A stretch of 64,000 nucleotides of DNA from Minisyncoccota bacterium (GCA_035546615.1 DASZWM010000002.1:1-64000); one strand, 5' to 3'. Shown: positions 2,969-13,942, numbered from the stretch's first letter. A program made the numbers and translations. Notes: generated by a model not told the origin, from the sequence alone.

Positions 2969-3072
2969 CGGGAGGGGTTTGCCAATTCCGGCTTCAAATC
3001 TAGTGAGTTCGGTTATCCACAGCAGGGCATTTTTGTCCGTACACAAGTTTGGGTGTAGTATCTAGTGCATGG

Positions 3073-3109
3073 GGCAGACCGCAGAGGCGGTTTGGCCTTT
3101 TTTGTTTTT
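3073..3109 (+). terminator. Rho-independent terminator after LamG operon
   Basis: GC-rich hairpin GGCAGACCGC-AGAG-GCGGTTTGGCC followed by TTTTTTGTTTTT. Confidence 0.5.
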
Positions 3110-3246
3110 CGTTAGGCGAGGGAGGCGAAGTACGCCCCGACCATGCTCACGATGACAATGACGCCTATCGTCCAAGAGAATATCTTGGTGAATTTGTCCC
3201 GGTTCTTTCCAAAAAGCCCAAACATATACCGAAGAGAATAGCATAT

Positions 3247-3639
3247 ATGCAGGAATTTAAAAAGCATCACCCAAAGACCCACCATCTGCTGCGATTCGCG
3301 GCTATGCTTCTAAGCACTATCCTTCTTTTTGCTACGGCGGGAGTAGCTGTTTCCTCCGCCTGGAATATGTACGGCACGTTCGCCGTCGCGGCTGATGCGC
3401 GGGTGGACGCGGAGAAAACATTGAGCGCCGCCCAGGCCGACGAGGCCCGGATAACCGCCACGGTCGCGGCGCTGGACTCCCAAAGCGGGATAGAGCGCGA
3501 GGTACGCGAGCGTTTCGGCGTAGTTAAGCCGGGGGAAGGGGAGATCCAGATAGTGCGCGAAAGCGCGCAGGAAAGCCCGGAGGCAGTGCAGGAAGAGAAC
3601 GGCCTCCTGCGGACGCTGCGCTCGCTCTTTTTGTGGTAG
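3247..3639 (+). CDS. FtsB/DivIC-like septum formation initiator
   Basis: Internal ATG of ORF 3049..3639. Short N-terminal region, one TM helix, a coiled coil, and a C-terminal EREVRERFGVVKPGEGEIQIV motif characteristic of the FtsB/FtsL family. Confidence 0.55.
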   Translation: MQEFKKHHPKTHHLLRFAAMLLSTILLFATAGVAVSSAWNMYGTFAVAADARVDAEKTLSAAQADEARITATVAALDSQSGIEREVRERFGVVKPGEGEIQIVRESAQESPEAVQEENGLLRTLRSLFLW

Positions 3640-3658
3640 AATCTTTTCCGTCAGACAG

Positions 3659-3729
3659 GCGGAATTAGTTCAGTGGCAGAACGAGTGCTTCCCAAGCATT
3701 AGGCGCGAGTCCGATTCTCGCATTCCGCA
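3659..3729 (+). tRNA. tRNA-Gly (anticodon CCC)
   Basis: Cloverleaf folds: acceptor GCGGAAT/ATTCCGC, D-arm GTTC-AGTGGCA-GAAC, anticodon stem AGTGC/GCATT with loop TTCCCAA (U33, CCC, A37), T-arm GCGAG-TCCGATT-CTCGC. No CCA encoded. Confidence 0.7.
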
Positions 3730-3779
3730 CAAAACTTGACAGGCATGCTATAATAAAAGAAAAGCTAACCACAATACTT

Positions 3780-4022
3780 ATGGACAAGAGTGTAACCATC
3801 TACAGCACACCGACCTGCCACTTCTGCCAGATGGCCAAGGAATTCTTCGCGGAGAAGGGCGTGCAGTACACCGCCTACGACGTCGCAAGCGACGCGGCAA
3901 AGCGCGCGGAGATGATACAGCTCACCGGCCAGCTCGGCGTCCCGGTCATCGTGATAAACGGCGAAGCGATGATCGGCTTCAGTCGCGACCGCCTCGCGCA
4001 GAAGTTGGGAATTGAGGCGTAA
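3780..4022 (+). CDS. Glutaredoxin-like protein (NrdH/Grx family)
   Basis: 80 aa with CHFC redox motif near the N-terminus (YSTPTCHFCQMAKEF) and a thioredoxin fold pattern. Confidence 0.75.
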   Translation: MDKSVTIYSTPTCHFCQMAKEFFAEKGVQYTAYDVASDAAKRAEMIQLTGQLGVPVIVINGEAMIGFSRDRLAQKLGIEA

Positions 4023-4078
4023 CAGAGCGGAACTAATAAGTACTTGTATAGATTAATTTGTTAGTTTAATATAGGGGT

Positions 4079-4711
4079 ATGAGAAAACATGCCTCTGCTG
4101 TTATTGCCTCAGTAAAAGACGACCGAAAACGAGGCTTTTCCGTTTCTGAATTAATGCAAAAGTATTCGTTGCCAAAGACAACGGTATGGCATTATGTACA
4201 CTCAATAAGACTCTCTGATACGCTGGGCGCACGTATCCGCTCGCGTCAGGGAGGAAGTGCTAAACGAAGCAAGGAAGGTTGGGAAGAGGCAAAAAGACAG
4301 GCCGCTTTTTTATTGAAAGGTTTTAAGGAAGAGACTGCATGGCCTGTATTATTCGCGGCTCTGTATTGGAGCGAGGGTACAAAAAAGAGTGGGTTTGTCT
4401 TCACCAATACAGATCCTTCAATGATACGAGTCTTCTTGAAGGCTCTACGTCGTAAGTTGGGAGTGAAAGACGGGGATATCGATATTCTCATTCGCACATG
4501 CGCGCCTATGGATCAGGCCGCTTGCCGCAAACACTGGGCAAAGATAACCGATACTCCTATACATAAAATAAGAATCAACCACCATGCGCAGAATAAAAGT
4601 AAGACAACCTATGGGATGTGCCGGATTACCGTCAGGAAAGGAGGCAAGTACTTGAAGCTCGCACACTGTCTCATTCAGGAGTTAACTGGTAAGATATTGG
4701 CTGTCGCTTAA
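4079..4711 (+). CDS. HTH plus LAGLIDADG-like (homing endonuclease-like) protein, paralog of 11093..11812
   Basis: N-terminal HTH-like segment SVSELMQKYSLPKTTVWHYV. Variant single LAGLIDADG motif FAALYWSEGTKKSGFVF followed by the typical beta-rich pattern. GC is lower than the surroundings. Stop codon is 1 nt before tRNA-Arg. Confidence 0.4.
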   Translation: MRKHASAVIASVKDDRKRGFSVSELMQKYSLPKTTVWHYVHSIRLSDTLGARIRSRQGGSAKRSKEGWEEAKRQAAFLLKGFKEETAWPVLFAALYWSEGTKKSGFVFTNTDPSMIRVFLKALRRKLGVKDGDIDILIRTCAPMDQAACRKHWAKITDTPIHKIRINHHAQNKSKTTYGMCRITVRKGGKYLKLAHCLIQELTGKILAVA

Positions 4712-4783
4712 GCCCCCGTAGCTCAATGGATAGAGCACTGCACTCCTAACGCGGCGATCCAGGTTCGACTCCTGGCGGGGGCA
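4712..4783 (+). tRNA. tRNA-Arg (anticodon CCT)
   Basis: Acceptor GCCCCCG/CGGGGGC, D-arm GCTC-AATGGATA-GAGC, anticodon loop CTCCTAA (U33, CCT, A37) with one A-C mismatch closing the stem, T-arm CCAGG-TTCGACT-CCTGG. Confidence 0.7.
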
Positions 4784-4798
4784 TGGTATTATTTTTCT

Positions 4799-5074
4799 AT
4801 GAATCCGGAGATGGAAGAGCTCAAGCAGCTGGTCCGCCAGAACATCGCGCTCACGGAAGAGAACAATAAGATGCTGCACGGGATGCGCCGGAGCGCCTGG
4901 GTATCTCGCGGCATACGCCTCCTCTGGATAGCCGCCATCGTGGCGTCGTCGGTATACGCGTACTGGTACGTCCAGCCGTACCTCGCTCAGATACTGGATT
5001 TCTACGGCAATCTCCAAAGCCTGCAGCAAAAGACGTCCGGCTTCTTCGGCCAGCCGCAGCAGGGGCAGCAATAG
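4799..5074 (+). CDS. Hypothetical small membrane protein
   Basis: 91 aa ORF with one predicted TM helix (LLWIAAIVASSVYAYWYV). Followed by a hairpin plus T-run at about 5080..5118. Confidence 0.4.
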   Translation: MNPEMEELKQLVRQNIALTEENNKMLHGMRRSAWVSRGIRLLWIAAIVASSVYAYWYVQPYLAQILDFYGNLQSLQQKTSGFFGQPQQGQQ

Positions 5075-5152
5075 CTCCCTATTCCGCGCGGGGTTCCTAA
5101 ATAGGGGCTTTTTTGCTAGAATCCCTAGTGTTGCTTTCGTACGGAAGGCCGC

Positions 5153-5225
5153 GCTTGGGTAGCTCAGTTGGTAGAGCATCTCCCTGAAGAGGAGGGGGTC
5201 GCCAGTTCGATCCTGGCCCCAAGCA
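5153..5225 (+). tRNA. tRNA-Phe (anticodon GAA)
   Basis: Acceptor GCTTGGG/CCCAAGC, D-arm GCTC-AGTTGGTA-GAGC, anticodon stem TCTCC/GGAGG with loop CTGAAGA, T-arm GCCAG-TTCGATC-CTGGC. Confidence 0.85.
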
Positions 5226-5300
5226 CAGAGGAGCGAAGCGATTACTGGGCTTGGGGCCAGGATTGGGAAGGGGTCGGAAATATTTGATTTATTTTATATT
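5226..5300. repeat. tRNA-Phe trailer with inverted copy of the tRNA 3' end and a degenerate GGGGTCGGAAA...ATTTTGTGC core
   Basis: 5249..5263 (gcttggggccaggat) is the exact reverse complement of tRNA positions 5210..5224. This is followed by GGGGTCGGAAATATTTGATTTATTTTATATTTTGTGC, which resembles the trailer cores found after other tRNAs. Confidence 0.35.
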
Positions 5301-5359
5301 TTGTGCTATCCTATATATAGAGGGGCGCAAGGCCTTGATCTCAACAGACGAGGGAAACT

Positions 5360-5758
5360 ATGGGCGATTTTCAACGTGCGGTCGTTGTTGGGCTCATTGA
5401 GTCCGCGGGCGAAGTACTCTTGGTGAAAAATTCCGAGGGAAATAGGCGGGATTGGCAGTTACCCGGAGGGGCTATCAATGAGGATGACAAACCCGCCATT
5501 TCTGCTTCGATGCGGATACTTCAGGAGACCGGACTCCATGTTCGGGCGGAGAAGCTACGGCTCGTCAAGTCTTTGGCACGCGATACCGACACCGCCAGGC
5601 AAACAGTGTATTTCTATCGTGCCGAATTGCCGGGCGGCGCCTTCGACCGATTGCCGTCAGTCGGTCCAAGCGGTCACGCGATTCGTCGGGAAAACCGCAA
5701 ACGTATAAATCACTTGCTTGGTCCACAAGACCTTCAACTGATGAAACATGTACGGTAA
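5360..5758 (+). CDS. NUDIX hydrolase
   Basis: Nudix box LPGGAINEDDKPAISASMRILQETGL, matching the GX5EX7REUXEEXGU pattern. Confidence 0.7.
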   Translation: MGDFQRAVVVGLIESAGEVLLVKNSEGNRRDWQLPGGAINEDDKPAISASMRILQETGLHVRAEKLRLVKSLARDTDTARQTVYFYRAELPGGAFDRLPSVGPSGHAIRRENRKRINHLLGPQDLQLMKHVR

Positions 5759-5809
5759 GTATTGCGCCGCCGGGAAACCTGGCGGCGCAATTTGTTTTTA
5801 TATAAACGC

Positions 5810-6310
5810 TTAGTTCGATCTGACCTTGAGCTTTGCCTGCCTGCCTTTGTCCATCTTAGGAAGCCTGATAACGAGAAGGCCGTGCTTCTCTACCGCTTCC
5901 GCCTCCTCTATCTCAACCTCCTGGGGAAGCACTATCGTGCGGCTGAAGGCGCCCCAATAGAGCTCCTGGAAGAAAAAGTCCCCGTTTGTGCCCTCGGCGT
6001 GGCGCTCGCGCTTGCCGCGAATAGTAACCATGTCGCGCGTTATAGAAACATCCAGGTCCTCGGGCCGTACGCCCGCTATCATGGCCTTAATGACGATATG
6101 GGTCGGGGTCTGGTAGACGTCCACCGAAAGCTCGCCTTCGGCTTCCTCTACGACATCCGCTTCCTCGCGCATAGGCGACAGGGGGCGCTTCTCGGCGCCG
6201 CGGCTTACGGGAACGCCCGCGCCCTGGTCAAGGTCGTCAAAAGAGTATTCGGTATCCGCGCCGGCCGAGCCGGTGAGCCAATCAAAGAGGGATTTTTTGT
6301 CGCGTGCCAT
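5810..6310 (-). CDS. Hsp20/alpha-crystallin family small heat-shock protein
   Basis: 166 aa. The alpha-crystallin domain signature (DVYQTPTHIVIKAMIAGVRPEDLDVSI...GLLVIRLPK) is typical of IbpA/Hsp20. Confidence 0.85.
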   Translation of the reverse strand: MARDKKSLFDWLTGSAGADTEYSFDDLDQGAGVPVSRGAEKRPLSPMREEADVVEEAEGELSVDVYQTPTHIVIKAMIAGVRPEDLDVSITRDMVTIRGKRERHAEGTNGDFFFQELYWGAFSRTIVLPQEVEIEEAEAVEKHGLLVIRLPKMDKGRQAKLKVRSN

Positions 6311-6325
6311 AGAAATACGGGGGGT

Positions 6326-7033
6326 TTAGGAATAGTGGGGCATAGGGCGCTTCACGCGCTCAAGCCCAAGCAATATCGCGACGATACCAAGCCAGATAAC
6401 GAGGAAAATCCAAAATGTCGCGCCACTGCCACTCCCCAGTATAAAAAAATTGAACAAGGTATGCAACGCGACGGCAAGGATAACTCCGCATAAGGCGGCC
6501 AGGCGCCGCGCGGCGGCCGGCTGGTAAAAGGAAAACGCGAGCGCCACGCCGATAGACGCGGAGGAGAGCGTGTGCAGGAGGGTAGCCCCGATGAACCGAA
6601 GGTCGCCGGTGACTATCGTCTGGAGCACGTTGCCGTCCATAAGCGGGTTCAGCAGGAACAGCATGTTCTCGGCCGCCGAAAATCCGAGCGCGGCGGTTAC
6701 AAGATACACGACGGCATCCAGCGGCTCGTCGAACACGCGCGAGCGCAGGGCGACCAGATACGCGGCCGCGAACTTAAAGAGCTCTTCGGCCAGCGCCCAC
6801 AGGAACAGCACGCCCAGGCTCGTGGACGCGTAGCCGAGGCTTATCGCCTGGGCCAGTACGAGGCGCTCCACGGGGAGCACGAACGGCACCATGCACATGC
6901 CGGCCAGAAAGCAGAAGAAGATGTATTTCTTCGGCTCGGGATGCAGGCGGTCCTCAAGGAGCCAGAACGTCAGCCACAGCAGCGCCGGGAGCACGCCGCC
7001 GAGGAATGCTATGAACAGCACGGGCGAGAGCAT
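6326..7033 (-). CDS. PrsW-family intramembrane metalloprotease
   Basis: Multi-TM protein with the conserved EELFK, FxxxEN (FSAAENMLF) and HTLSSA motifs of the PrsW/CPBP-like glutamic proteases. Confidence 0.65.
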   Translation of the reverse strand: MLSPVLFIAFLGGVLPALLWLTFWLLEDRLHPEPKKYIFFCFLAGMCMVPFVLPVERLVLAQAISLGYASTSLGVLFLWALAEELFKFAAAYLVALRSRVFDEPLDAVVYLVTAALGFSAAENMLFLLNPLMDGNVLQTIVTGDLRFIGATLLHTLSSASIGVALAFSFYQPAAARRLAALCGVILAVALHTLFNFFILGSGSGATFWIFLVIWLGIVAILLGLERVKRPMPHYS

Positions 7034-7040
7034 GCGCCCA

Positions 7041-9191
7041 TTATACCGTCTCTTTTGCGGGCCACGCCTCGACCATCAACAAGTCTTTCGTATTCGGCAT
7101 GGAAGACCAGATCTCCTCGGTTACGAACGGCATGAACGGATGCATGCCTTTCAGCAGCACTTCTAGCGCCTGCAGCAAAGCGGCCGCGCGGGATTTCGCG
7201 CGCGCAGCGTCGGGGCCTTTCAAAAGCGGCTTGCTCTCCTCCAGTATGGCGTCCGCAAAGCGGTGCCATATGAATTGGTACATTGTATCGGCTGCCAGGT
7301 CGAGCCGGAACGAGTCTATGTGCGTTGCCGCCTCTTGCGCGGCCCCGCGCGCTTCCTCCACGATCGCCTCGTCCTCAGGCGCGAGGGTAGCATCCGAGTC
7401 CGCTCCGGCTGCCTGCCCGCTTTCAAGGACGAAGCGTGCAATATTCCATATCTTGTTTGCAAAATTCTTATACCCGCGTATGCGGTCTTCCGACAGCTTC
7501 AGGTCGTTGCCGGGAGCGGCGCCGACGATAAGCGAAAGGCGCACGGCGTCGGCGCCGTATTTCTCTATCATGTCCAGCGGGTCGATGATATTGCCGAGGC
7601 TCTTGCTCATCTTGCGGCCTTTCTCGTCGCGCACGAGGCCGTGCAGGTACACGCGCTGGAAGGGCACGGTATCAAGCAGGAAGCCGCTCATGAGTATCAT
7701 GCGCGCGACCCAGAAGAAGAGGATGTCGTAGCCGGTTTCGAGAACCGAAGTAGGATGATAGGTCCTCATGTCAGCCGTCTCCTCGGGCCAGCCGAGCGTG
7801 GAGAACGTCCAGAGGCCCGAAGAGAACCAGGTGTCGAGCGTATCGGAGTCCTGCTCCCAGCCCTCGCCGGGGGATTCCGCGCTGATGCGAATTTCCTCGC
7901 CCTTGTACCAGGCGGGGACGCGGTGGCCGAACCATATCTGCCTTGAGATGCACCAGTCGCGCAGGTTGTCTATCCAATGGTAATAGATCTTCTCGAAGTG
8001 GTCGGGGGTGATAGTGATGTTCTTGCTTTCAACCGCCTTGCGCATAATCTCCTTGAGCGTCGTCTGCTTGCTGTCGCGTTCGAACTCCTTGTTCACGGCG
8101 ACGAACCACTGCTTCATTATCTGCGGCTCGATGACCGCCTCGGTGCGCTCGGCCGTGGCGACATTATGCACGTAGTCCTCATCCACTTTGACGAGCAGGC
8201 CCTTTTCGCGCATTTTCTCGACTATTTTCTCGCGCGCTTCGGCTATCTTGAGCCCCGCGAACTCGCCCGCGATAGGGAGCAGCTTGCCGTACTTGTCGAT
8301 GACCTGCTCCTTGTTGAGCTTGTGGCGCTCGGCTATCTCGAAGTCGATGCCGCTGTGCCAGGGCGTTATCGTCATGACGCCGGTGCCGAACTCCGGATTC
8401 GCCGCCGCGTCTTTGATGACGGTGGCGGTAATGGGTCCGTTTATCCATTCCACTTCCAGCGTATCGCCGTGCTTATACTGCGCATAGCGCGCGTCATCCG
8501 GATGCATCACCACATACTTGTCGCCGAACTTCGTCTCCGGCCGCGCGGTGCCGATGGTGAAGGGGCCGTAGGTGAAGTAGTAGAATTTCGATTTTTCCTC
8601 CCGATATACTATTTCGTCGTCCGAAATCACCGTCTGGCCCTTCGGGTCCCAGTTCACGATGCGCTCGCCCTGGTAGATGAGCCCGGCCTTATGCATGCGG
8701 ATGAACGCCTCGTTCACCGCGCGGCGGCGGGAATCGTCGAGCGTATAGGCCTCGCGGCTCCAGTCTACCGATGCGCCCATGCGGCGCACCTGGTTCACAA
8801 TGGTGTCGTGGCTGGCCTGCGCGAACTCCTCGACGCGCTTGAGGAAGGTTTCGCGGCCGAGGTCATGGCGGTTCACGCCTTCTTTCTTCTGGATCTCCTT
8901 TTCGACCTTTGACTGCGTGGCTATTGCCGCATGGTCGGTACCGGGAACCCACAGGGTCTTAAGCCCGCGCATGCGCGCGAAGCGCACGAGGATATCCTCA
9001 ACCGCGAGCATCGCGGCGTGGCCCAGGTGGAGCGTGCCGGTGACGTTGGGCGGGGGAAGGACAATGGAAAATGACTCCGTGCGCTCGCCGGGAAGATTGT
9101 CCGGGTTGAAATAGCCGGAATCCTCCCACTTTTTGTAGATGTCCGTCTCGACCGCCTTGTGGTCGTATGGCTTGAGGAATTTGCTGTCCAT
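7041..9191 (-). CDS. valS: Valine--tRNA ligase (compact form lacking the C-terminal coiled coil)
   Basis: Class I HIGH motif (PPNVTGTLHLGHA), KMSKS motif (KMSKSLGN), and the WCISRQ and DTLDTWFSS motifs typical of ValRS. Length 716 aa. Confidence 0.85.
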   Translation of the reverse strand: MDSKFLKPYDHKAVETDIYKKWEDSGYFNPDNLPGERTESFSIVLPPPNVTGTLHLGHAAMLAVEDILVRFARMRGLKTLWVPGTDHAAIATQSKVEKEIQKKEGVNRHDLGRETFLKRVEEFAQASHDTIVNQVRRMGASVDWSREAYTLDDSRRRAVNEAFIRMHKAGLIYQGERIVNWDPKGQTVISDDEIVYREEKSKFYYFTYGPFTIGTARPETKFGDKYVVMHPDDARYAQYKHGDTLEVEWINGPITATVIKDAAANPEFGTGVMTITPWHSGIDFEIAERHKLNKEQVIDKYGKLLPIAGEFAGLKIAEAREKIVEKMREKGLLVKVDEDYVHNVATAERTEAVIEPQIMKQWFVAVNKEFERDSKQTTLKEIMRKAVESKNITITPDHFEKIYYHWIDNLRDWCISRQIWFGHRVPAWYKGEEIRISAESPGEGWEQDSDTLDTWFSSGLWTFSTLGWPEETADMRTYHPTSVLETGYDILFFWVARMILMSGFLLDTVPFQRVYLHGLVRDEKGRKMSKSLGNIIDPLDMIEKYGADAVRLSLIVGAAPGNDLKLSEDRIRGYKNFANKIWNIARFVLESGQAAGADSDATLAPEDEAIVEEARGAAQEAATHIDSFRLDLAADTMYQFIWHRFADAILEESKPLLKGPDAARAKSRAAALLQALEVLLKGMHPFMPFVTEEIWSSMPNTKDLLMVEAWPAKETV

Positions 9192-9243
9192 TGCTGCAAA
9201 TACTACGCCAAATAAGGCTTTTTTAGAAGGGTCAAGGACATAT

Positions 9244-9272
9244 TTGCTTTTTATGCTAAAATATGATATAAT
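9244..9272 (+). promoter_or_regulatory. Sigma70-like promoter candidate TTGCTT-N17-TATAAT
   Basis: Near-consensus -35/-10 with 17-nt spacer in an AT-rich intergenic region upstream of ORF 9344..9769. The valS start is divergent to it. Confidence 0.35.
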
Positions 9273-9343
9273 TGTAAAGCTGACCGGAATGGTAGCCGTT
9301 TAACTGATGAGCGGTTAGATGAACTCCAGAACAGGGGTTATTA

Positions 9344-9769
9344 ATGTCCAAAGAAATCGTTCTTTCAGGCTCCGCCCGTCTCGCACTCTTCATTGTCGAG
9401 AAGGCGCTCAGCGTCTTACTCGATAAGGAGATCATGCTTAAGGATTGCACCATCCTTCTGCATGAGCCGTGGGCCCACAAATTCGAAAATGGTGCTCAGA
9501 TTCGTGAAGGGAGAATCACAGGTAATCTTTGGCTTAAGGAGGGTGAGAAGCCGGAGCCTGTGGACGCGGTAGTGTCTCTCTTCTGTTTCGATGACGGTCG
9601 CCCAGCCATGATCTCTGGCAATCAACAAGTCATTCGGATTCCGACCTCGGGAATACTGGTATACGCGAATTGGCAAGAGAATGGTGCTATTCGGGTGGGG
9701 GATGCAAATATTTCCCCGATTCCCTGGTTTTATACCCCAGACTACGTAAAGGGATCCCTTGACCGTTAA
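9344..9769 (+). CDS. Hypothetical protein
   Basis: 141 aa ORF in a lower-GC patch. No recognisable motif. Confidence 0.4.
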   Translation: MSKEIVLSGSARLALFIVEKALSVLLDKEIMLKDCTILLHEPWAHKFENGAQIREGRITGNLWLKEGEKPEPVDAVVSLFCFDDGRPAMISGNQQVIRIPTSGILVYANWQENGAIRVGDANISPIPWFYTPDYVKGSLDR

Positions 9770-9790
9770 CCAAGTCGCCGCTTCCGGCGC

Positions 9791-9818
9791 AGAGCCAGCA
9801 TCGAAAGGTGCTGGCTCT
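9791..9818. terminator. Bidirectional hairpin between convergent genes
   Basis: Perfect 10-bp stem AGAGCCAGCA-tcgaaagg-TGCTGGCTCT between ORF 9344..9769 (+) and tsaD (-). Confidence 0.5.
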
Positions 9819-9820
9819 AG

Positions 9821-10915
9821 CTATTTTACTATCGACAATTGACCCTCCGCCCTGAAGTCTTCCTTTGTTGCGTCATCAAGGCCGTTTAAGCGCCTTGCGA
9901 GCGCGGCTTCGGCTATCATTATCGCGTTGTCACCGGTTATGGAGAGCTCCGGCAGCCGGAATTCGGCGTATGAAAAGTCTTTTTCGATAAGCTTTTGCAG
10001 CTGGCTCCGCAGATGGGCGTTCGCCGCGACCCCGCCGCCGATGACGAACGTCTTGGCACCCGTTTGTTCCATCGCGCGGGCCGTTTTCTTAAGCAGTATC
10101 TCCGTTACAGCATCCTCGAACTCGCGCGCAAAATCCGCTATTTGTTCGGCCGAAAGCGTTTGTATGCCGCCCATGTCGCGCAGGGCGTAAAGCGCGGCAG
10201 TCTTAAGGCCGGAGAAAGAGACGTCGCAAGTGTCCGCCTGAAGCATGGGACGGGGAAGCGAGACAACGCTTTTTTTTCGCGAGGTTTCACCTCGCGAAAA
10301 ACTGGCAAGCCGGGAGATTTCCGGACCGCCGGGGTAGGCGAGGCCGAGCATGCGCGCAACCTTATCGAACGCTTCGCCAACGGCGTCGTCGAGCGTCTCG
10401 CCGATAATTTCATACTTGAACCACTCGCGCATGAGCACGAACTCAGTGTGCCCGCCGGATATCAAAAGCCCTAGGACGGGGAACTGCACATTCTTAATTT
10501 CCATCATTTTAGCTTTTTGCAAAAAGCTAAAATGATTGCTTCCTGTTTGTGCAAGGGAAGAGATAAGATGCCCCTCCATATGGTTGGTCGGCAGGAGCGG
10601 CAGATTTTTATCAGCCGCGAGCTTCTTGGCGAATTCGATGCCGGTCCAGAGCGCTGGCTCAAGCCCCGGGCCCTGAGTTACCGCGATAGCGTTCGCTTCT
10701 TCATCCTTAAACTGCTCAAATAGCACGGGCAGGTTCTTCTGGTGCTCGCGCTTGGCGAGATTGGGGTAGACCCCGCCATACTCGGCGTGTAATTGGGCTT
10801 GCGAAAGGAGAGCGTGCTTAAGCACGCTAAATGCGAATCCACCGGCGGTCTTTTCTCCTTCAACTAAGGCAATACCCGTCTCGTCGCAGGAGGTTTCTAT
10901 AGCGAGGATTTTCAT
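9821..10915 (-). CDS. tsaD: tRNA N6-adenosine threonylcarbamoyltransferase TsaD (Kae1/YgjD)
   Basis: Aligns along its whole length with TsaD: MKILAIETSCDETG, HMEGHL, SGGHTEF, FSGLKT and GGGVAAN motifs. Contains an in-frame insertion of about 15 aa encoded by a palindromic repeat (see findings). Confidence 0.9.
   Translation of the reverse strand: MKILAIETSCDETGIALVEGEKTAGGFAFSVLKHALLSQAQLHAEYGGVYPNLAKREHQKNLPVLFEQFKDEEANAIAVTQGPGLEPALWTGIEFAKKLAADKNLPLLPTNHMEGHLISSLAQTGSNHFSFLQKAKMMEIKNVQFPVLGLLISGGHTEFVLMREWFKYEIIGETLDDAVGEAFDKVARMLGLAYPGGPEISRLASFSRGETSRKKSVVSLPRPMLQADTCDVSFSGLKTAALYALRDMGGIQTLSAEQIADFAREFEDAVTEILLKKTARAMEQTGAKTFVIGGGVAANAHLRSQLQKLIEKDFSYAEFRLPELSITGDNAIMIAEAALARRLNGLDDATKEDFRAEGQLSIVK
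10505..10534. repeat. Perfect 30-nt palindrome CATTTTAGCTTTTTG|CAAAAAGCTAAAATG (core of a 45-nt repeat, copy 1)
   Basis: Perfect inverted repeat inside the tsaD coding sequence. Near-identical copy at 30632..30661. Confidence 0.7.
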
Positions 10916-11051
10916 AGTCTTTTTGTGTCACAAATATTTCTTCGCCGTCGCTCAGAAATTTTGCGACCCCGGCTCGCGGTTTTGCAATTGCAAAACATCG
11001 CTGCGCCCCGCACCAGGTGCAAAAACTGCCGCAGGGCAGATTTTGCGTCTC
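10916..11051 (-). repeat. tRNA-Val trailer element (family A, copy 3)
   Basis: In tRNA sense: GAGACGCAAAAT, then hairpin CTGCC/GGCAG plus T-run, then GTGCGGGGCGCAGCGATG, hairpin TTTTGCAATTGCAAAA, CCGCGAGCCGGGGTCGC, hairpin GTCGC/GCGAC, GGCGAAGAAATATTTGTGAC, then the tsaD ATG. Homologous to 39607..39760 and 49790..49943. Confidence 0.45.
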
Positions 11052-11127
11052 TGGTGCGCGGTGAGGGATTCGAACCCCCGACATCGTCAACGTCAATGAC
11101 GCGCTCTACCAACTGAGCTAACCGCGC
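11052..11127 (-). tRNA. tRNA-Val (anticodon GAC), CCA encoded
   Basis: Reverse complement gives GCGCGGT-TA-GCTCAGTTGGTAGAGC-G-CGTCA-TTGACGT-TGACG-ATGTC-GGGGG-TTCGAAT-CCCTC-ACCGCGC-A-CCA. Confidence 0.8.
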
Positions 11128-11812
11128 GATTCCGTATTACCTTCTGGCAATACAATTGATAAAGATACAATAAATCCCGTTGTATTGCCACATCGTAATA
11201 TGAAACTATGCATACTCCTTTATAGGAATTACGTGATTTCTTCCCGATGGTCCTTTTGTCAAAATAAACACCTTTGAACTGATCTTGTGGAATTGCGAGC
11301 GCTGCGCACCAGTACTTGATTATTTCCGAAGGTCTCTGATCCGCCCGTATATGCACTTCGCACCGCATCCTTTTAAGATCTATCCTGTACGAAAGGCATA
11401 AGGCGCTTATAAAAAAGTTCAATATGTTGGGATCAGCATTTCCTAACACCAAGCCTTTCTCTCGTTTCGTTCCTTCTCCCCAATACAGCATCGCCAAAGC
11501 AAGCTTAAGTATCTCCTTATCTTTGTAGCCAATCCGCTGGATCGTTCTTTCCGCCCGGGTTTTCGCTGCTTCTATGCGCTGCATTTTTTGTTGAGTATGC
11601 CGAAGAGCAGCCTTTTCACGGGCAAGAATAAGGGCGTTTTTCCTACTTCGTTCGAGCCTGTCGCGATAGGTAGGCGGAAGTTCCACATTTCTAAGCCACC
11701 CGCTAAGAGTAGAGCGCGGGATTTGAAGTGCCTCTTCTATATTCCTAATGGAAGCTCCTTTGATTCTCAGGCGAACAGCCTTGTCCCGCAAACCAGAAAA
11801 ACGAGATGTCAT
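11093..11812 (-). CDS. HTH plus LAGLIDADG-like (homing endonuclease-like) protein, paralog of 4079..4711
   Basis: Internal Met of ORF 11093..11938. HTH-like segment IRNIEEALQIPRSTLSGWL and variant motif LAMLYWGEGTKREKGLVL. Collinear similarity to the 4079..4711 product. Lower GC. The 3' end overlaps the 5' end of tRNA-Val by about 35 nt. Confidence 0.4.
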   Translation of the reverse strand: MTSRFSGLRDKAVRLRIKGASIRNIEEALQIPRSTLSGWLRNVELPPTYRDRLERSRKNALILAREKAALRHTQQKMQRIEAAKTRAERTIQRIGYKDKEILKLALAMLYWGEGTKREKGLVLGNADPNILNFFISALCLSYRIDLKRMRCEVHIRADQRPSEIIKYWCAALAIPQDQFKGVYFDKRTIGKKSRNSYKGVCIVSYYDVAIQRDLLYLYQLYCQKVIRNRAVSSVGRARH

Positions 11813-11828
11813 ATTATCCAGTGTACAC

Positions 11829-12116
11829 TCAATGGTTCCAAGACTCAATCCTTTTTTGCTTATCTTCTCCCCAGCGCCACCGCGCAGGCTCGCCCCGTTT
11901 GTAACATATCCAGAAAAGCAGGCCGGTAGTAACCGCAATATACGGTATCAACAATAAAATTCCCCATACGTTGCCGCTCGTTACGATGAGATGCACGAGC
12001 AAGAGCGCTCCGGCGATAAAAGATAGCATCCACAAGAGCATCACCAAGAACCCTTCCTTCGTAGCGGGGTACCAGCCATATCCGTACTGCTTCGCCTTGA
12101 ACCAGTATTTTTCCAT
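11829..12116 (-). CDS. Hypothetical small membrane protein
   Basis: Internal Met ([23 protein letters not shown]...) of ORF 11829..12191. Two predicted TM helices. Starts 5 nt downstream of tRNA-Ser. Confidence 0.35.
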
Positions 12117-12120
12117 ACTG

Positions 12121-12205
12121 CGGAGGAGGTGGGATTCGAACCCACGATACCTTGCGGTATACCGGTTTTCGAAACCGGCGCGTTCGACCACTCTGCCACT
12201 CCTCC
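12121..12205 (-). tRNA. tRNA-Ser (anticodon CGA), long variable arm
   Basis: Reverse complement gives GGAGGAG-TG-GCAGAGTGGTCGAACGC-G-CCGGT-TTCGAAA-ACCGG-TATACCGCAAGGTATC-GTGGG-TTCGAAT-CCCAC-CTCCTCC-G. Confidence 0.8.
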
Positions 12206-12528: not shown

Positions 12529-12927
12529 ATGTACGGCTACATTACGAACATCGAGAAGGCGTCGCTTGAGAACGAATACTTTCGGCGGGTGCTCTACACC
12601 GACAAGCGCCTCCAGCTTGTGGTGATGAGCCTCAATCCCCGCGAGGATATCGGCGAAGAAGTGCATCCGCTTGACCAGTTCATCCGCGTGGAGCAGGGCG
12701 ACGGCAAGGCCGTATTGGACGGCAAAGAGACCGAAATCCACGACGGCTCGGTGGTTATCATTCCGCAGGGAACCCGGCACAACATCGTCAACCTGTCTCC
12801 TGACCAGCCGATGAAGCTTTACACCCTGTACGCTCCGCCGGACCACAAGGACGGCACTATACATAAGACAAAAGCGGACGCGCAGGCAGACAAGGGGGAT
12901 GAGTTCGACGGCAAGACGAGCGAATAA
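12529..12927 (+). CDS. Cupin domain protein
   Basis: Conserved cupin motifs around EEVHPLDQFIRVEQGDG and GSVVIIPQGTRHNIVN. Confidence 0.65.
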   Translation: MYGYITNIEKASLENEYFRRVLYTDKRLQLVVMSLNPREDIGEEVHPLDQFIRVEQGDGKAVLDGKETEIHDGSVVIIPQGTRHNIVNLSPDQPMKLYTLYAPPDHKDGTIHKTKADAQADKGDEFDGKTSE

Positions 12928-13942
12928 AGAAGTGACAAAGGCCTATATTCAGCATGAGGGTAAAGCCGTAAGCGACCCGCGCTTCAGCCACATGATGGCT
13001 ATTGCCCTGGACTCAAGTTCGCAAAACAAGCGTGGCGTTATTCGCTGTATTGTGAGCCGCCAGGGGAATGTTGCGGAAAAGGGATATGTAGATCGTAGCG
13101 AGTTGCATACAATTTCCGGGGACACACTAGAACACTTTACTGTTGGAGAAAAGCTACAAATAGAAAACGAGAATGTTATTGCTGAGCAGCTAAGTGCAGA
13201 AGGGCTCGATTACCTTGGGCTCGAGGATCCGGATATTTGGATTGACCAAAAGACGGGGCTTTTGCACTTGTACTTCACCATGCCGTTTGTCAGTAAAGAA
13301 GAGGGTCATTCTCAAATTCATCTCGGACATGCTGTAGGCAAGGATTTGAACTCGCTTCAAATGACAATGCCCGCGCTCCGTGCGGATACGGGCGGTAAAA
13401 ACACCGCAAAAGAAGTCTCTATTGCTCCGACAAATAGCAAAGGGCTCCGCTACAATCTTTTTGAATCAAGCCAGATAGAAGGCGGAGTTTGGTATTCTAC
13501 GGTCCGTGTAGGCATTGCGGCAGATATGGACCAGCCGTGGCAGTTTGGCGAAACAGTATTCCATCCTAAAGAAAAAAATATTGCCTGGGCCGGTGGCCAC
13601 GCCTCGCCAGGACCCCTGTTCTCCAAAGAGTTTATTGATGTAGGGGAAGGGAAGCTCCTCGGCATTATGAACGGGCGCGAGGCCAATCAGCAGCCTGGAG
13701 ACAAAACAATATACGGAATGTTTTCAGTCGGACTTTTTGTCTACGATTACGAGAATGGAAAAGTCGACTGGGTCTCGCCCGAGCCGCTCATTATTGATTC
13801 CGAGGCCAAGACGATTACTTTCGCGAGCCAATTTGTCGAGACAGGAAAAGGCGAGGGTATCTTATATGCGCACGTGGATGATTCCTTTGTGCGGGCGTAT
13901 ACACTTAATGCGGAAGCTATAAAAGGGCTCCTGCTGAAATAA
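12899..13942 (+). CDS. Hypothetical protein, possibly a beta-propeller glycosidase-like fold (GH130/DUF377-like)
   Basis: 347 aa ORF. Likely true start at an internal Met near 12989, since the ORF start overlaps the cupin gene. Lower GC. Repeated W/Y-rich beta-strand pattern. No firm motif. Confidence 0.35.
   Translation: MSSTARRANKEVTKAYIQHEGKAVSDPRFSHMMAIALDSSSQNKRGVIRCIVSRQGNVAEKGYVDRSELHTISGDTLEHFTVGEKLQIENENVIAEQLSAEGLDYLGLEDPDIWIDQKTGLLHLYFTMPFVSKEEGHSQIHLGHAVGKDLNSLQMTMPALRADTGGKNTAKEVSIAPTNSKGLRYNLFESSQIEGGVWYSTVRVGIAADMDQPWQFGETVFHPKEKNIAWAGGHASPGPLFSKEFIDVGEGKLLGIMNGREANQQPGDKTIYGMFSVGLFVYDYENGKVDWVSPEPLIIDSEAKTITFASQFVETGKGEGILYAHVDDSFVRAYTLNAEAIKGLLLK

Follow-up and report, generated by a model that had tools for sequence, protein, structure and literature searches.

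Genes for LAGLIDADG-like proteins with a helix-turn-helix domain abut specific tRNA genes in CPR bacteria and may form putative endonuclease-plus-tRNA cassettes

Several genetic systems are known in which endonucleases or insertions are associated with tRNA genes. T4 SegB is a free-standing GIY-YIG endonuclease encoded in the T4 tRNA gene cluster, which cuts tRNA genes at a recognition site lying inside them, in a generic T-loop motif common to many tRNAs (PMC2330249). Enzymes of the LAGLIDADG type (I-CreI-type single-motif homodimers, I-DmoI, I-Tsp061I) are borne by introns or inteins, and group I introns carrying LAGLIDADG genes were described for cyanobacterial tRNA-Arg(CCU), along with tRNA-Asn introns in Patescibacteria (PMC13011429). 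WhiA, a transcription factor of Gram-positive bacteria, is a domesticated LAGLIDADG scaffold combined with a helix-turn-helix (HTH) domain; it is a single-copy, conserved gene, and its product lacks catalytic acids and combines a pair of tandem degenerate domains with an HTH at the C-terminus. Finally, islands and prophages borne by tyrosine or serine integrases use tRNA genes as insertion sites, duplicate the 3' part of the tRNA and sit downstream of it. The survey of Patescibacteria tRNA introns (PMC13011429) reported only intron-borne endonuclease genes and did not mention endonuclease-like genes abutting tRNAs, and no description of such an arrangement was found in the literature searched.

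The window analysed here, a stretch of 64,000 nucleotides of a Candidatus Paceibacterota (CPR) metagenome-assembled genome (locus tags VHD55_00270 and VHD55_00320), contains two genes of this kind, designated A and B. By analogy, T4 SegB might be regarded as the closest functional analogue of their family: in both cases a free-standing endonuclease gene (putative here) is located among tRNA genes, and related genomes lack it at otherwise homologous tRNA regions. The A/B family differs from SegB in being LAGLIDADG-like with an HTH rather than GIY-YIG, in having cellular CPR bacteria as hosts, in possessing one dedicated subfamily per tRNA isoacceptor, and in that the ORF is welded to position +1 of the tRNA, with the stop codon often inside the tRNA. 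In contrast to the LAGLIDADG enzymes, the A/B domain is not recognised by sequence profiles, its first beta hairpin is cut to one strand followed by a helix, an N-terminal HTH and a long helical linker are added, the genes lie outside introns and inteins, and the activity is only putative. Unlike WhiA, the family occurs patchily and in multiple paralogs, and its proteins carry an invariant acid in a single domain preceded by an N-terminal HTH. Group I introns resemble it in involving the anticodon-loop region of specific tRNAs and an endonuclease family tied to a tRNA species, whereas the A/B family has no ribozyme, its genes are located upstream of complete, uninterrupted tRNAs, and continuity of the tRNA would be ensured by duplication or replacement together with RNase P rather than by splicing. 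Integrase-borne islands share the use of a tRNA gene as insertion site and a partial tRNA duplicate flanking the insert, but the A/B family has no integrase, its duplicate corresponds to the 5' half of the tRNA, and the insert is a single gene of roughly 0.7 kb upstream of the tRNA. Free-standing homing endonuclease genes are known; what is new is the protein family and its way of residing at the target.

Gene A (4079..4711, plus strand) encodes a protein of 210 aa belonging to the Arg(CCT)-linked subfamily and ends with a TAA stop codon (4709-4711). The first base of the tRNA-Arg(CCT) gene (4712..4783, plus strand; ARAGORN and Rfam) directly follows the stop, leaving a gap of 0 nt. The HTH (residues 6-40, nt 4094-4198) and the LAGLIDADG-like domain (residues 84-208, nt 4328-4702) are connected by a helical linker, and the latter domain carries the motif FAALYWSEGTKK (nt 4352-4387) with glutamate E99 encoded at nt 4373-4375. 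Reading of the sequence reveals a promoter-like element at 4044..4072 (plus strand), consisting of TTGTAT (4044-4049), a 17-nt spacer and TAATAT (4067-4072), the last being separated by 6 nt from the ATG at 4079. At this distance the mRNA is expected to have no leader or hardly any, and no Shine-Dalgarno motif was seen in the sequence upstream of the ATG.

Gene B (11093..11812, minus strand) encodes a protein of 239 aa of the Val(GAC)-linked subfamily. Its start at ATG 11812 is backed by the family alignment and by NCBI protein P0084; the frame could open as far as TTG 11938, and this start has no support. The product comprises an HTH (residues 6-39, nt 11797-11696), a long helix (residues 47-93) and a LAGLIDADG-like domain (residues 99-233, nt 11518-11114) with the motif LAMLYWGEGTKR (nt 11497-11462) and E113 (nt 11476-11474), all on the minus strand. 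The first 35 nt of the tRNA-Val(GAC) gene (11052..11127, minus strand; ARAGORN, Rfam) form the 3' end of gene B, so that the last 11 codons and the stop consist of tRNA sequence and the TGA stop is U33-G34-A35 of the anticodon loop. A terminator-like hairpin followed by a T run (11026..11039, minus strand) is situated just 3' of the tRNA. No terminator was found between either ORF and its tRNA, and co-transcription of gene B with tRNA-Val is inferred from this absence. The promoter-like element of gene B (11820..11848, minus strand) consists of TTGAGT (11848-11843), a 17-nt spacer and TACACT (11825-11820), 7 nt before ATG 11812, and matches the upstream consensus of the Val family, TTg...aTT.G.ACca.tGAt..TATaaT..Atac immediately followed by ATG. 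It also overlaps the 3' end of an upstream ORF for a small membrane protein.

Homology of the two products is supported by BLASTP (E = 3e-12, 27% identity across the N-terminal 123 aa), and profile alignments and AlphaFold models show the same architecture, collinear over the full length; no paralogs other than A and B were detected in the window by tblastn. Both models (pLDDT 94.6 and 95.6) consist of a three-helix HTH (residues 6-40), a long helical linker and a C-terminal alpha/beta domain, the first helix of which ends in the motif LYW[SG]EG.K. The family motif L-A-x-L-Y-[WL]-[GAS]-E-G aligns position by position with LAGLIDADG. Across 502 aligned sequences position 99 is occupied by glutamate in 99% and aspartate in 1%, G100 is found in 100% and K102 in 98%, and L95 and Y96 are also conserved. 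The acid at the catalytic position is, then, conserved in all 502 sequences, although nuclease activity remains untested. Among solved structures a LAGLIDADG protein comes closest to the modelled C-terminal domain, the nearest structural relatives of which are LAGLIDADG enzymes and WhiA.

Sequence-profile searches did not recover this assignment. No Pfam LAGLIDADG family (LAGLIDADG_1, _2, _3, LAGLIDADG_WhiA) was matched at E values up to 10 by A, B or 82 family members, all Pfam matches of which were to HTH families; NCBIfam returned only weak matches to transposase HTHs, PHROGs and PADLOC gave no useful match for the family, and phmmer and hmmsearch against PDB sequences found HTH or spurious matches only and no LAGLIDADG protein. 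Alignment of the family profile with the I-CreI sequence by hhalign (an approximate query) gave a probability of 1.4%. Foldseek against the PDB returned no match at E < 0.001, the top-ranked structures being IspF and OmpA-like domains. According to DSSP, the topology in both models is alpha-beta-alpha-beta-alpha-beta-beta-alpha, compared with the canonical alpha-beta-beta-alpha-beta-beta-alpha, a single strand replacing the canonical hairpin between the first two helices of the domain. Pfam profiles revealed no DDE, tyrosine-recombinase or serine-recombinase catalytic domain in the family.

An earlier note, made from the sequence alone, had described A and B as collinear homologs with an N-terminal HTH and a variant single LAGLIDADG motif, A adjoining tRNA-Arg in the same orientation and B overlapping tRNA-Val by about 35 nt. 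The homology held (BLASTP, profile alignments, models), as did the HTH (Pfam HTH families, models), the motif, the adjoining position of A (0 nt between) and the overlap of B, which is exactly 35 nt. The Pfam search for LAGLIDADG profiles did not recover the domain at E up to 10, and fold prediction gave a LAGLIDADG-like domain, but with one strand instead of the first hairpin. The association of paralogs with tRNAs was retained in 161 of 167 genes, in a census of 160 other loci.

A profile search of 1.84 billion representative proteins, clustered at 50% identity, revealed a superfamily of 5,826 clusters at E <= 0.001, of which 3,402 were recovered at E <= 1e-10. The named matches are nearly all annotated as hypothetical and originate from CPR lineages, among them Paceibacteria, Microgenomates, Kaiser-, Wolfe-, Davies-, Uhr-, Falkow-, Moran- and Azambacteria. 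For the search of related loci the A-type and B-type families were scanned separately, the combined A+B alignment being too divergent. An HMM census of 160 other loci found that 161 of the 167 full-length family genes adjoin a co-oriented tRNA, whereas among ORFs outside the family, of 150 aa or more and from these tRNA-rich loci, only 32 of 837 do so. The adjacency is therefore far beyond chance. B-type genes were surveyed in one genome for each GTDB species, and in 77 of 80 loci the 3' end of the gene overlaps or adjoins a tRNA-Val(GAC) in the same orientation; two of the three exceptions are contig ends, and the third (L036) contains a tRNA-Val(GAC)-like sequence that was not called by ARAGORN. 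The A-type metagenome loci are linked to tRNA-Arg(CCT) in 36 cases, Lys(CTT) in 19, Gln(TTG) in 18, and Ser(CGA) and Met(CAT) in one case each. Genes linked to Gly(GCC) and Phe(GAA), as well as a frameshifted copy preceding Trp(CCA), come from the HMM census. Subfamilies are hence known for the isoacceptors Val-GAC, Arg-CCT, Lys-CTT, Gln-TTG, Gly-GCC, Ser-CGA, Phe-GAA, Met-CAT and Trp-CCA. The nearest protein neighbour is linked to the same tRNA type in 157 of 160 cases, and therefore protein subfamily and tRNA identity are coupled. Strict, isoacceptor-specific abutment on the tRNA 5' end is the defining property of the family.

Most ORFs of the Val family (80 GTDB species loci) have no stop codon of their own. 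In about 46 loci the stop is provided by U8-A9-G10 (TAG), giving a 10-nt overlap, and the alternative is U33-G34-A35 (TGA) with an overlap of 34-36 nt; altogether the stop codon lies inside the tRNA in 58 of the 78 Val-linked genes, gene B included. A conserved Cys codon is located 77-90 nt from tRNA position +1 in 68 of these 78 genes, and the folded protein of the Val subfamily ends within a few codons of the tRNA. For gene callers and annotators this means that the stop of such ORFs may be supplied by U8-A9-G10 or U33-G34-A35 of a tRNA.

In 95 of 163 family genes the start codon is preceded, at a distance of exactly 6 or 7 nt, by the end of a hexamer resembling a -10 box (at least 5 of 6 matches), against a background of 2-3 per offset, and a Shine-Dalgarno-like motif is present in only 5 of 163. 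That the leaderless layout is specific to the element was only partly rejected: the host lineage also seldom uses Shine-Dalgarno motifs (4 of 30 genes), but a -10 box at that distance is rarer in host genes (6 of 30, against 107 of 163 family genes in this comparison). It is shown, then, that each gene has its own promoter-like element at a fixed distance from the start, placed as for a leaderless mRNA; expression from it is inferred. The Val-family promoters carry, in addition, a conserved 15-nt element between the -35 and -10 boxes. In the 3' ends of the ORFs a separate promoter for the tRNA was not recognisable, the A/T-rich consensus seen there being due to the codons.

Comparison of related genomes reveals that these genes are gained or lost at orthologous tRNA sites. 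Two loci, L171 (GCA_035546575.1) and L172, are colinear with positions 3000-10200 of the window at 67-77% nucleotide identity and share with it the order DivIC-like gene, glutaredoxin, ORF 4799, HSP20, PrsW, ValRS and TsaD. In both of them the tRNA-Arg(CCT) and tRNA-Val(GAC) sites are empty, and no family member was found anywhere in the 14.6 kb and 20.3 kb available for L171 and L172. ORF 4799 has a paralog (P0351) in the same MAG. The conserved array Leu(GAG)-Val(TAC)-Phe(GAA)-Gly(GCC) carries a family gene in the Phe/Gly spacer and none in the Val/Phe spacer in L015, in the Val/Phe spacer in L020, and in neither in L036. Presence/absence polymorphism at orthologous tRNA sites is thus established.

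The tRNA alleles themselves also bear on gain and loss. The window tRNA-Arg(CCT) is only 73-75% identical to the allele of the syntenic relatives (55/75 to that of L171) and 81-85% identical to alleles of other occupied loci, whereas the flanking tRNAs are 97-100% identical in the relatives (tRNA-Gly 70/72 and tRNA-Phe 74/74 between window and L171). A divergent allele of foreign appearance beside nearly identical flanking tRNAs suggests that gene A and its tRNA arrived together. The window tRNA-Val, on the other hand, has its acceptor stem and D arm in common with the allele of the relatives, which is not predicted by a simple import of the whole cassette.

The base composition of both genes is foreign to the window. 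The GC content is 0.455 for A and 0.453 for B, compared with 0.577 for the window, and GC3 is 0.45 and 0.44, compared with 0.64-0.84 in seven of ten neighbouring genes. The statement of the earlier note that both genes are lower in GC than their surroundings was thus confirmed, with the reservation that the other three of the ten neighbours also have a low GC3 (0.50-0.55). The same tendency holds outside the window: in 99% of 139 loci the gene has a lower GC content than its flanks, the mean difference being 6.5 points. Distant relatives also occur within dense tRNA arrays on IMG/VR contigs, the phage identity of which was not established.

Traces of insertion are provided by truncated, unannotated 5' halves of the same tRNA, found upstream of the gene in 8 of 153 loci (5%): three linked to Val (L002, L048, L077), four to Lys (L127, L140, L151, L153) and one to Gln (L144). 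In control searches, 5' halves of other tRNA types gave 8 matches in 1530, and reversed or reverse-complemented queries gave 0. The remnants of L002, L077, L144 and L153 (and, by eye, L140) stop in the anticodon loop, at positions 33-38, and the aligned part of those of L048, L127 and L151 ends at positions 22-26. The arrangement in L153 runs tRNA-Arg(TCG), 8 nt, the Lys 5' half (positions 1-38), the ORF from its ATG and finally the intact tRNA-Lys. The promoter of L002 has as its -35 box TTGAC, which is the anticodon loop of the remnant. Infernal at its E-value threshold reported no truncated 5' halves, so the support comes only from local alignment with controls, and neither window copy shows such a remnant. 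Such remnants are what one would expect of an element that enters at the anticodon loop and restores the tRNA gene by duplicating its 5' part, in which case both copies of the tRNA would act as homology arms independent of the genomic context.

Taken together, A and B are, in our opinion, rather to be read as free-standing homing-endonuclease-plus-tRNA cassettes than otherwise, a preference which is slight and in which the nuclease activity is inferred. Such a cassette would consist of its own promoter, a leaderless ORF and a tRNA that begins at or before the stop codon of the ORF. The protein would bind and cut the DNA of the cognate tRNA gene in genomes lacking the cassette, probably around the anticodon arm, the DNA of which is a natural palindrome and would suit a homodimer. 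Through repair, the gene would then be copied in, accompanied either by a whole copy of the tRNA or by a replacement for its 5' part, so that tRNA function would never be lost. Transcription of the tRNA would start at the promoter of the cassette, and RNase P would free the tRNA, doing here what splicing does when an endonuclease gene is borne by an intron. For ORFs whose stop falls within the tRNA, cleavage by RNase P would leave a non-stop mRNA and may keep the endonuclease at a low level.

Against the cassette reading, no nuclease activity, target site or immunity mechanism has been shown. Immunity is a problem because the intact downstream tRNA should keep any site internal to the tRNA. 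The main evidence against it is the pattern of selection, which is not that of a classical cycle of invasion, decay and loss: the median dN/dS is 0.12 and the highest value 0.147 (23 pairs, dS 0.4-2.6), and the frameshifted copy of L041 is the sole disrupted one among about 170, although the loci were picked by conserved peptides, which introduces a bias against decayed copies. Strong purifying selection and scarce decay thus indicate more conservation than that cycle predicts. For the Val family, a neighbour-joining tree has a star-like shape with partial grouping by taxon (Kaiserbacteria; Daviesbacteria with a Microgenomates genome) and does not separate vertical from horizontal descent; it is possible that much of the inheritance in this family is vertical.

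The rival explanation that survives best, and which remains possible, is that A and B are accessory, domesticated WhiA-like DNA-binding proteins with a LAGLIDADG scaffold and an HTH that no longer cut. Each paralog would bind its own locus and regulate itself and the co-transcribed tRNA, and the linkage would then reflect cis-acting autoregulation instead of mobility. In favour of this are the strong purifying selection (dN/dS about 0.12) with almost no pseudogenes, the conserved 15-nt promoter-spacer element of the Val family, which could be an operator, the partly coherent taxonomy of the Val-family tree, and the apparent dependence of the tRNA on the promoter of the gene, given that no terminator separates them. 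Against it are the single domain, the N-terminal HTH and the E/D in all 502 sequences, unlike WhiA; the foreign GC3 of A and B; the replacement of the tRNA-Arg allele along with the gene; and the 5' half-tRNA remnants, which point to insertion events. An essential domesticated role was rejected, because both genes are absent from the close relatives L171 and L172. The earlier note had left a choice between selfish elements and domesticated DNA-binding proteins; the selfish element was supported and fits better because there are relatives without both genes, the base composition is foreign and the acid is universally conserved.

Less likely is a minimal integrating element with this protein as its recombinase or transposase; by means of the HTH and a nuclease domain it would insert site-specifically into the tRNA anticodon loop and bring a replacement 5' part, as a mirror image of the integrase-driven islands, which carry the tRNA 3' part. 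In its favour, the HTH is similar to that of several transposases (Tc3, Sleeping Beauty, IS630, IS21) and of serine recombinases, the 5' half of the same tRNA is duplicated on the other side of the gene in 8 loci, broken at 33-38, and one homolog was labelled 'transposase' by JGI. However, there is no DDE, tyrosine- or serine-recombinase catalytic domain, the remnants are rare (8/153 loci), and LAGLIDADG enzymes are not known to perform strand transfer. An integrase-type tRNA island proper was rejected, since no recombinase domain is present and the duplicates are 5' and not 3' halves. A role at the RNA level, as a maturase-like or processing factor for the mRNA and tRNA precursor, is very improbable: LAGLIDADG maturases exist and some assist the folding of group I introns, and the ORF and tRNA are inferred to share one transcript, the ORF often ending inside the tRNA, but there is no intron or ribozyme and only uninterrupted tRNAs (Rfam), the N-terminal domain is an HTH of the DNA type, and relatives without the protein make the same tRNA species. 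A group I intron or another structured RNA was likewise rejected, as Rfam at the gathering threshold found only complete tRNAs and the ARAGORN tRNAs are uninterrupted.

Returning to the cassette reading, a bolder version of it is conceivable, to which we give less credence and which we would not favour on the present evidence: the family may represent an unrecognised gene drive for tRNA genes, in which an endonuclease is welded to a copy of its own target tRNA. Here, the cassette would replace the resident tRNA gene, with the tRNA itself serving as the homology arm on either side, and this would account for the 5' halves left behind. The part of intron or intein splicing would be taken by RNase P acting on the precursor. 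As the stop codon of the ORF is often located inside the tRNA, full-length endonuclease could come only from unprocessed precursor, so that its dosage would be coupled to tRNA maturation. On this version, more than 5,800 protein clusters and at least nine target tRNA species would amount to a major class of mobile elements that has been overlooked in CPR bacteria, and perhaps in their phages, and to a natural library of meganucleases specific for tRNA genes.

If the cassette reading is true, it would represent a third way, besides introns and inteins, to occupy an essential, conserved target harmlessly, namely by sitting in the 5' leader of the tRNA, bringing a replacement segment and leaving RNase P to remove the rest. 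It would assign a function to thousands of 'hypothetical proteins' in CPR genomes and could help to explain the turnover of tRNA-gene alleles in them. It would also offer many compact, naturally diversified DNA-recognition scaffolds with known candidate targets. Even without DNA cutting, one paralog per isoacceptor fixed at the tRNA 5' end across a bacterial radiation is unusual.

Several tRNA genes of the window that belong to isoacceptors occupied elsewhere carry no family gene. The tRNA-Lys(CTT) gene (39535..39608, plus strand), with tRNA-Leu(TAG) ending 119 nt upstream, is of the kind that carries a dedicated subfamily in 20 other loci. The tRNA-Ser(CGA) gene (12120..12205, minus strand) lies 57 nt from a divergent tRNA-Glu(TTC), and in L133 and L021 a family gene is present between the tRNAs of the same Glu/Ser pair. 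The site of tRNA-Phe(GAA) (5153..5226, plus strand) is also unoccupied, and in L020 a family gene is located immediately upstream of this tRNA. Flips of tRNA orientation were also seen here.

Comparison of the window with two syntenic related genomes, L171 (GCA_035546575.1) and L172, reveals that tRNA-Gly(CCC), tRNA-Arg(CCT) and tRNA-Phe(GAA) lie on the opposite strand in both relatives, while the order and orientation of all interleaved protein genes are unchanged. The tRNA-Gly gene occupies positions 3659-3730 in the window and 3766-3837 in L171, the tRNA-Arg gene 4712-4783 and 4173-4247, and the tRNA-Phe unit 5109-5231 and 4604-4677, respectively. Since tRNA-Gly and tRNA-Phe are 97-100% identical between the window and the syntenic relatives, it appears that single tRNA transcription units were flipped in place. 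For tRNA-Phe, roughly 45 nt of promoter belong to the inverted segment.

One arm of a 19-nt inverted repeat with 95% complementarity (5210-5228 and 5245-5263) lies at the 3' end of tRNA-Phe and the other in its trailer; this repeat is probably what the earlier note had described as a tRNA trailer repeat. In L171, a minus-strand copy of tRNA-Phe is found at this position, and its beginning matches the trailer arm. The arm might thus be the leftover of a flipped or replaced tRNA gene; alternatively, it may be a hairpin.

In the stretch 4765-4801, the ORF that follows tRNA-Arg (4799..5074) has a -10-like TATTAT ending 6 nt ahead of its ATG. This promoter shares sequence with the 3' terminal part of tRNA-Arg and is conserved in L171 despite the inverted tRNA-Arg there. 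A Shine-Dalgarno-like motif was found in 4 of 30 genes of this lineage, in which leaderless genes without Shine-Dalgarno sequences seem to be common.

A small membrane-protein ORF (11829-12116, minus strand) starts 4 nt past tRNA-Ser(CGA) and ends within the promoter of gene B, the homing-endonuclease-like gene that runs into tRNA-Val(GAC). Therefore tRNA-Ser, the small ORF, gene B and tRNA-Val form a compact head-to-tail series on a single strand, and a terminator is present only after tRNA-Val. In the promoters of the tRNA-Val-linked subfamily to which gene B belongs, the -35 and -10 boxes flank an element of about 15 nt (aTT.G.ACca.tGAt) whose conservation extends across many CPR lineages (L001-L080), 45 to 15 nt upstream of the start codons; in the window it lies at 11842-11826. 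Ordinary promoter contacts do not account for this element, which might be an operator for the HTH domain or a remnant of a tRNA.

Two other ORFs of the window have low GC3 values, 0.55 for 9344-9769 and 0.50 for 12899-13942, against 0.64-0.84. The former separates the ValRS and TsaD genes, which are adjacent in L171, and is thus probably another recent insertion.

Among further family members, a copy located directly 5' of tRNA-Trp(CCA) in L041 (5828-6500), which adds a ninth target tRNA species, is split across two reading frames, with HMM positions 1-86 in one and 84-205 in the other; either the copy is decaying, or the split is a sequencing frameshift. All tRNA-Gly(GCC) genes abutted by a family gene (L007, L015, L040, L080, L144 and L159) carry an unusual D arm, TCGTATAACGG.ATTA, whereas the D arm is ordinary in most of those without a family gene (L024, L025, L033, L049 and L122), L036 being the sole unoccupied gene with the unusual type. 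Target specificity, co-conversion or shared ancestry might each underlie this correspondence.

Distant relatives of the family occur inside dense tRNA arrays on IMG/VR contigs labelled as viral (L161-L167). There, the genes adjoin the tRNA downstream of them less tightly, while several of them start just past an upstream tRNA. Two of these contigs, of 447 and 527 kb, may represent huge phages or misclassified CPR genomes.
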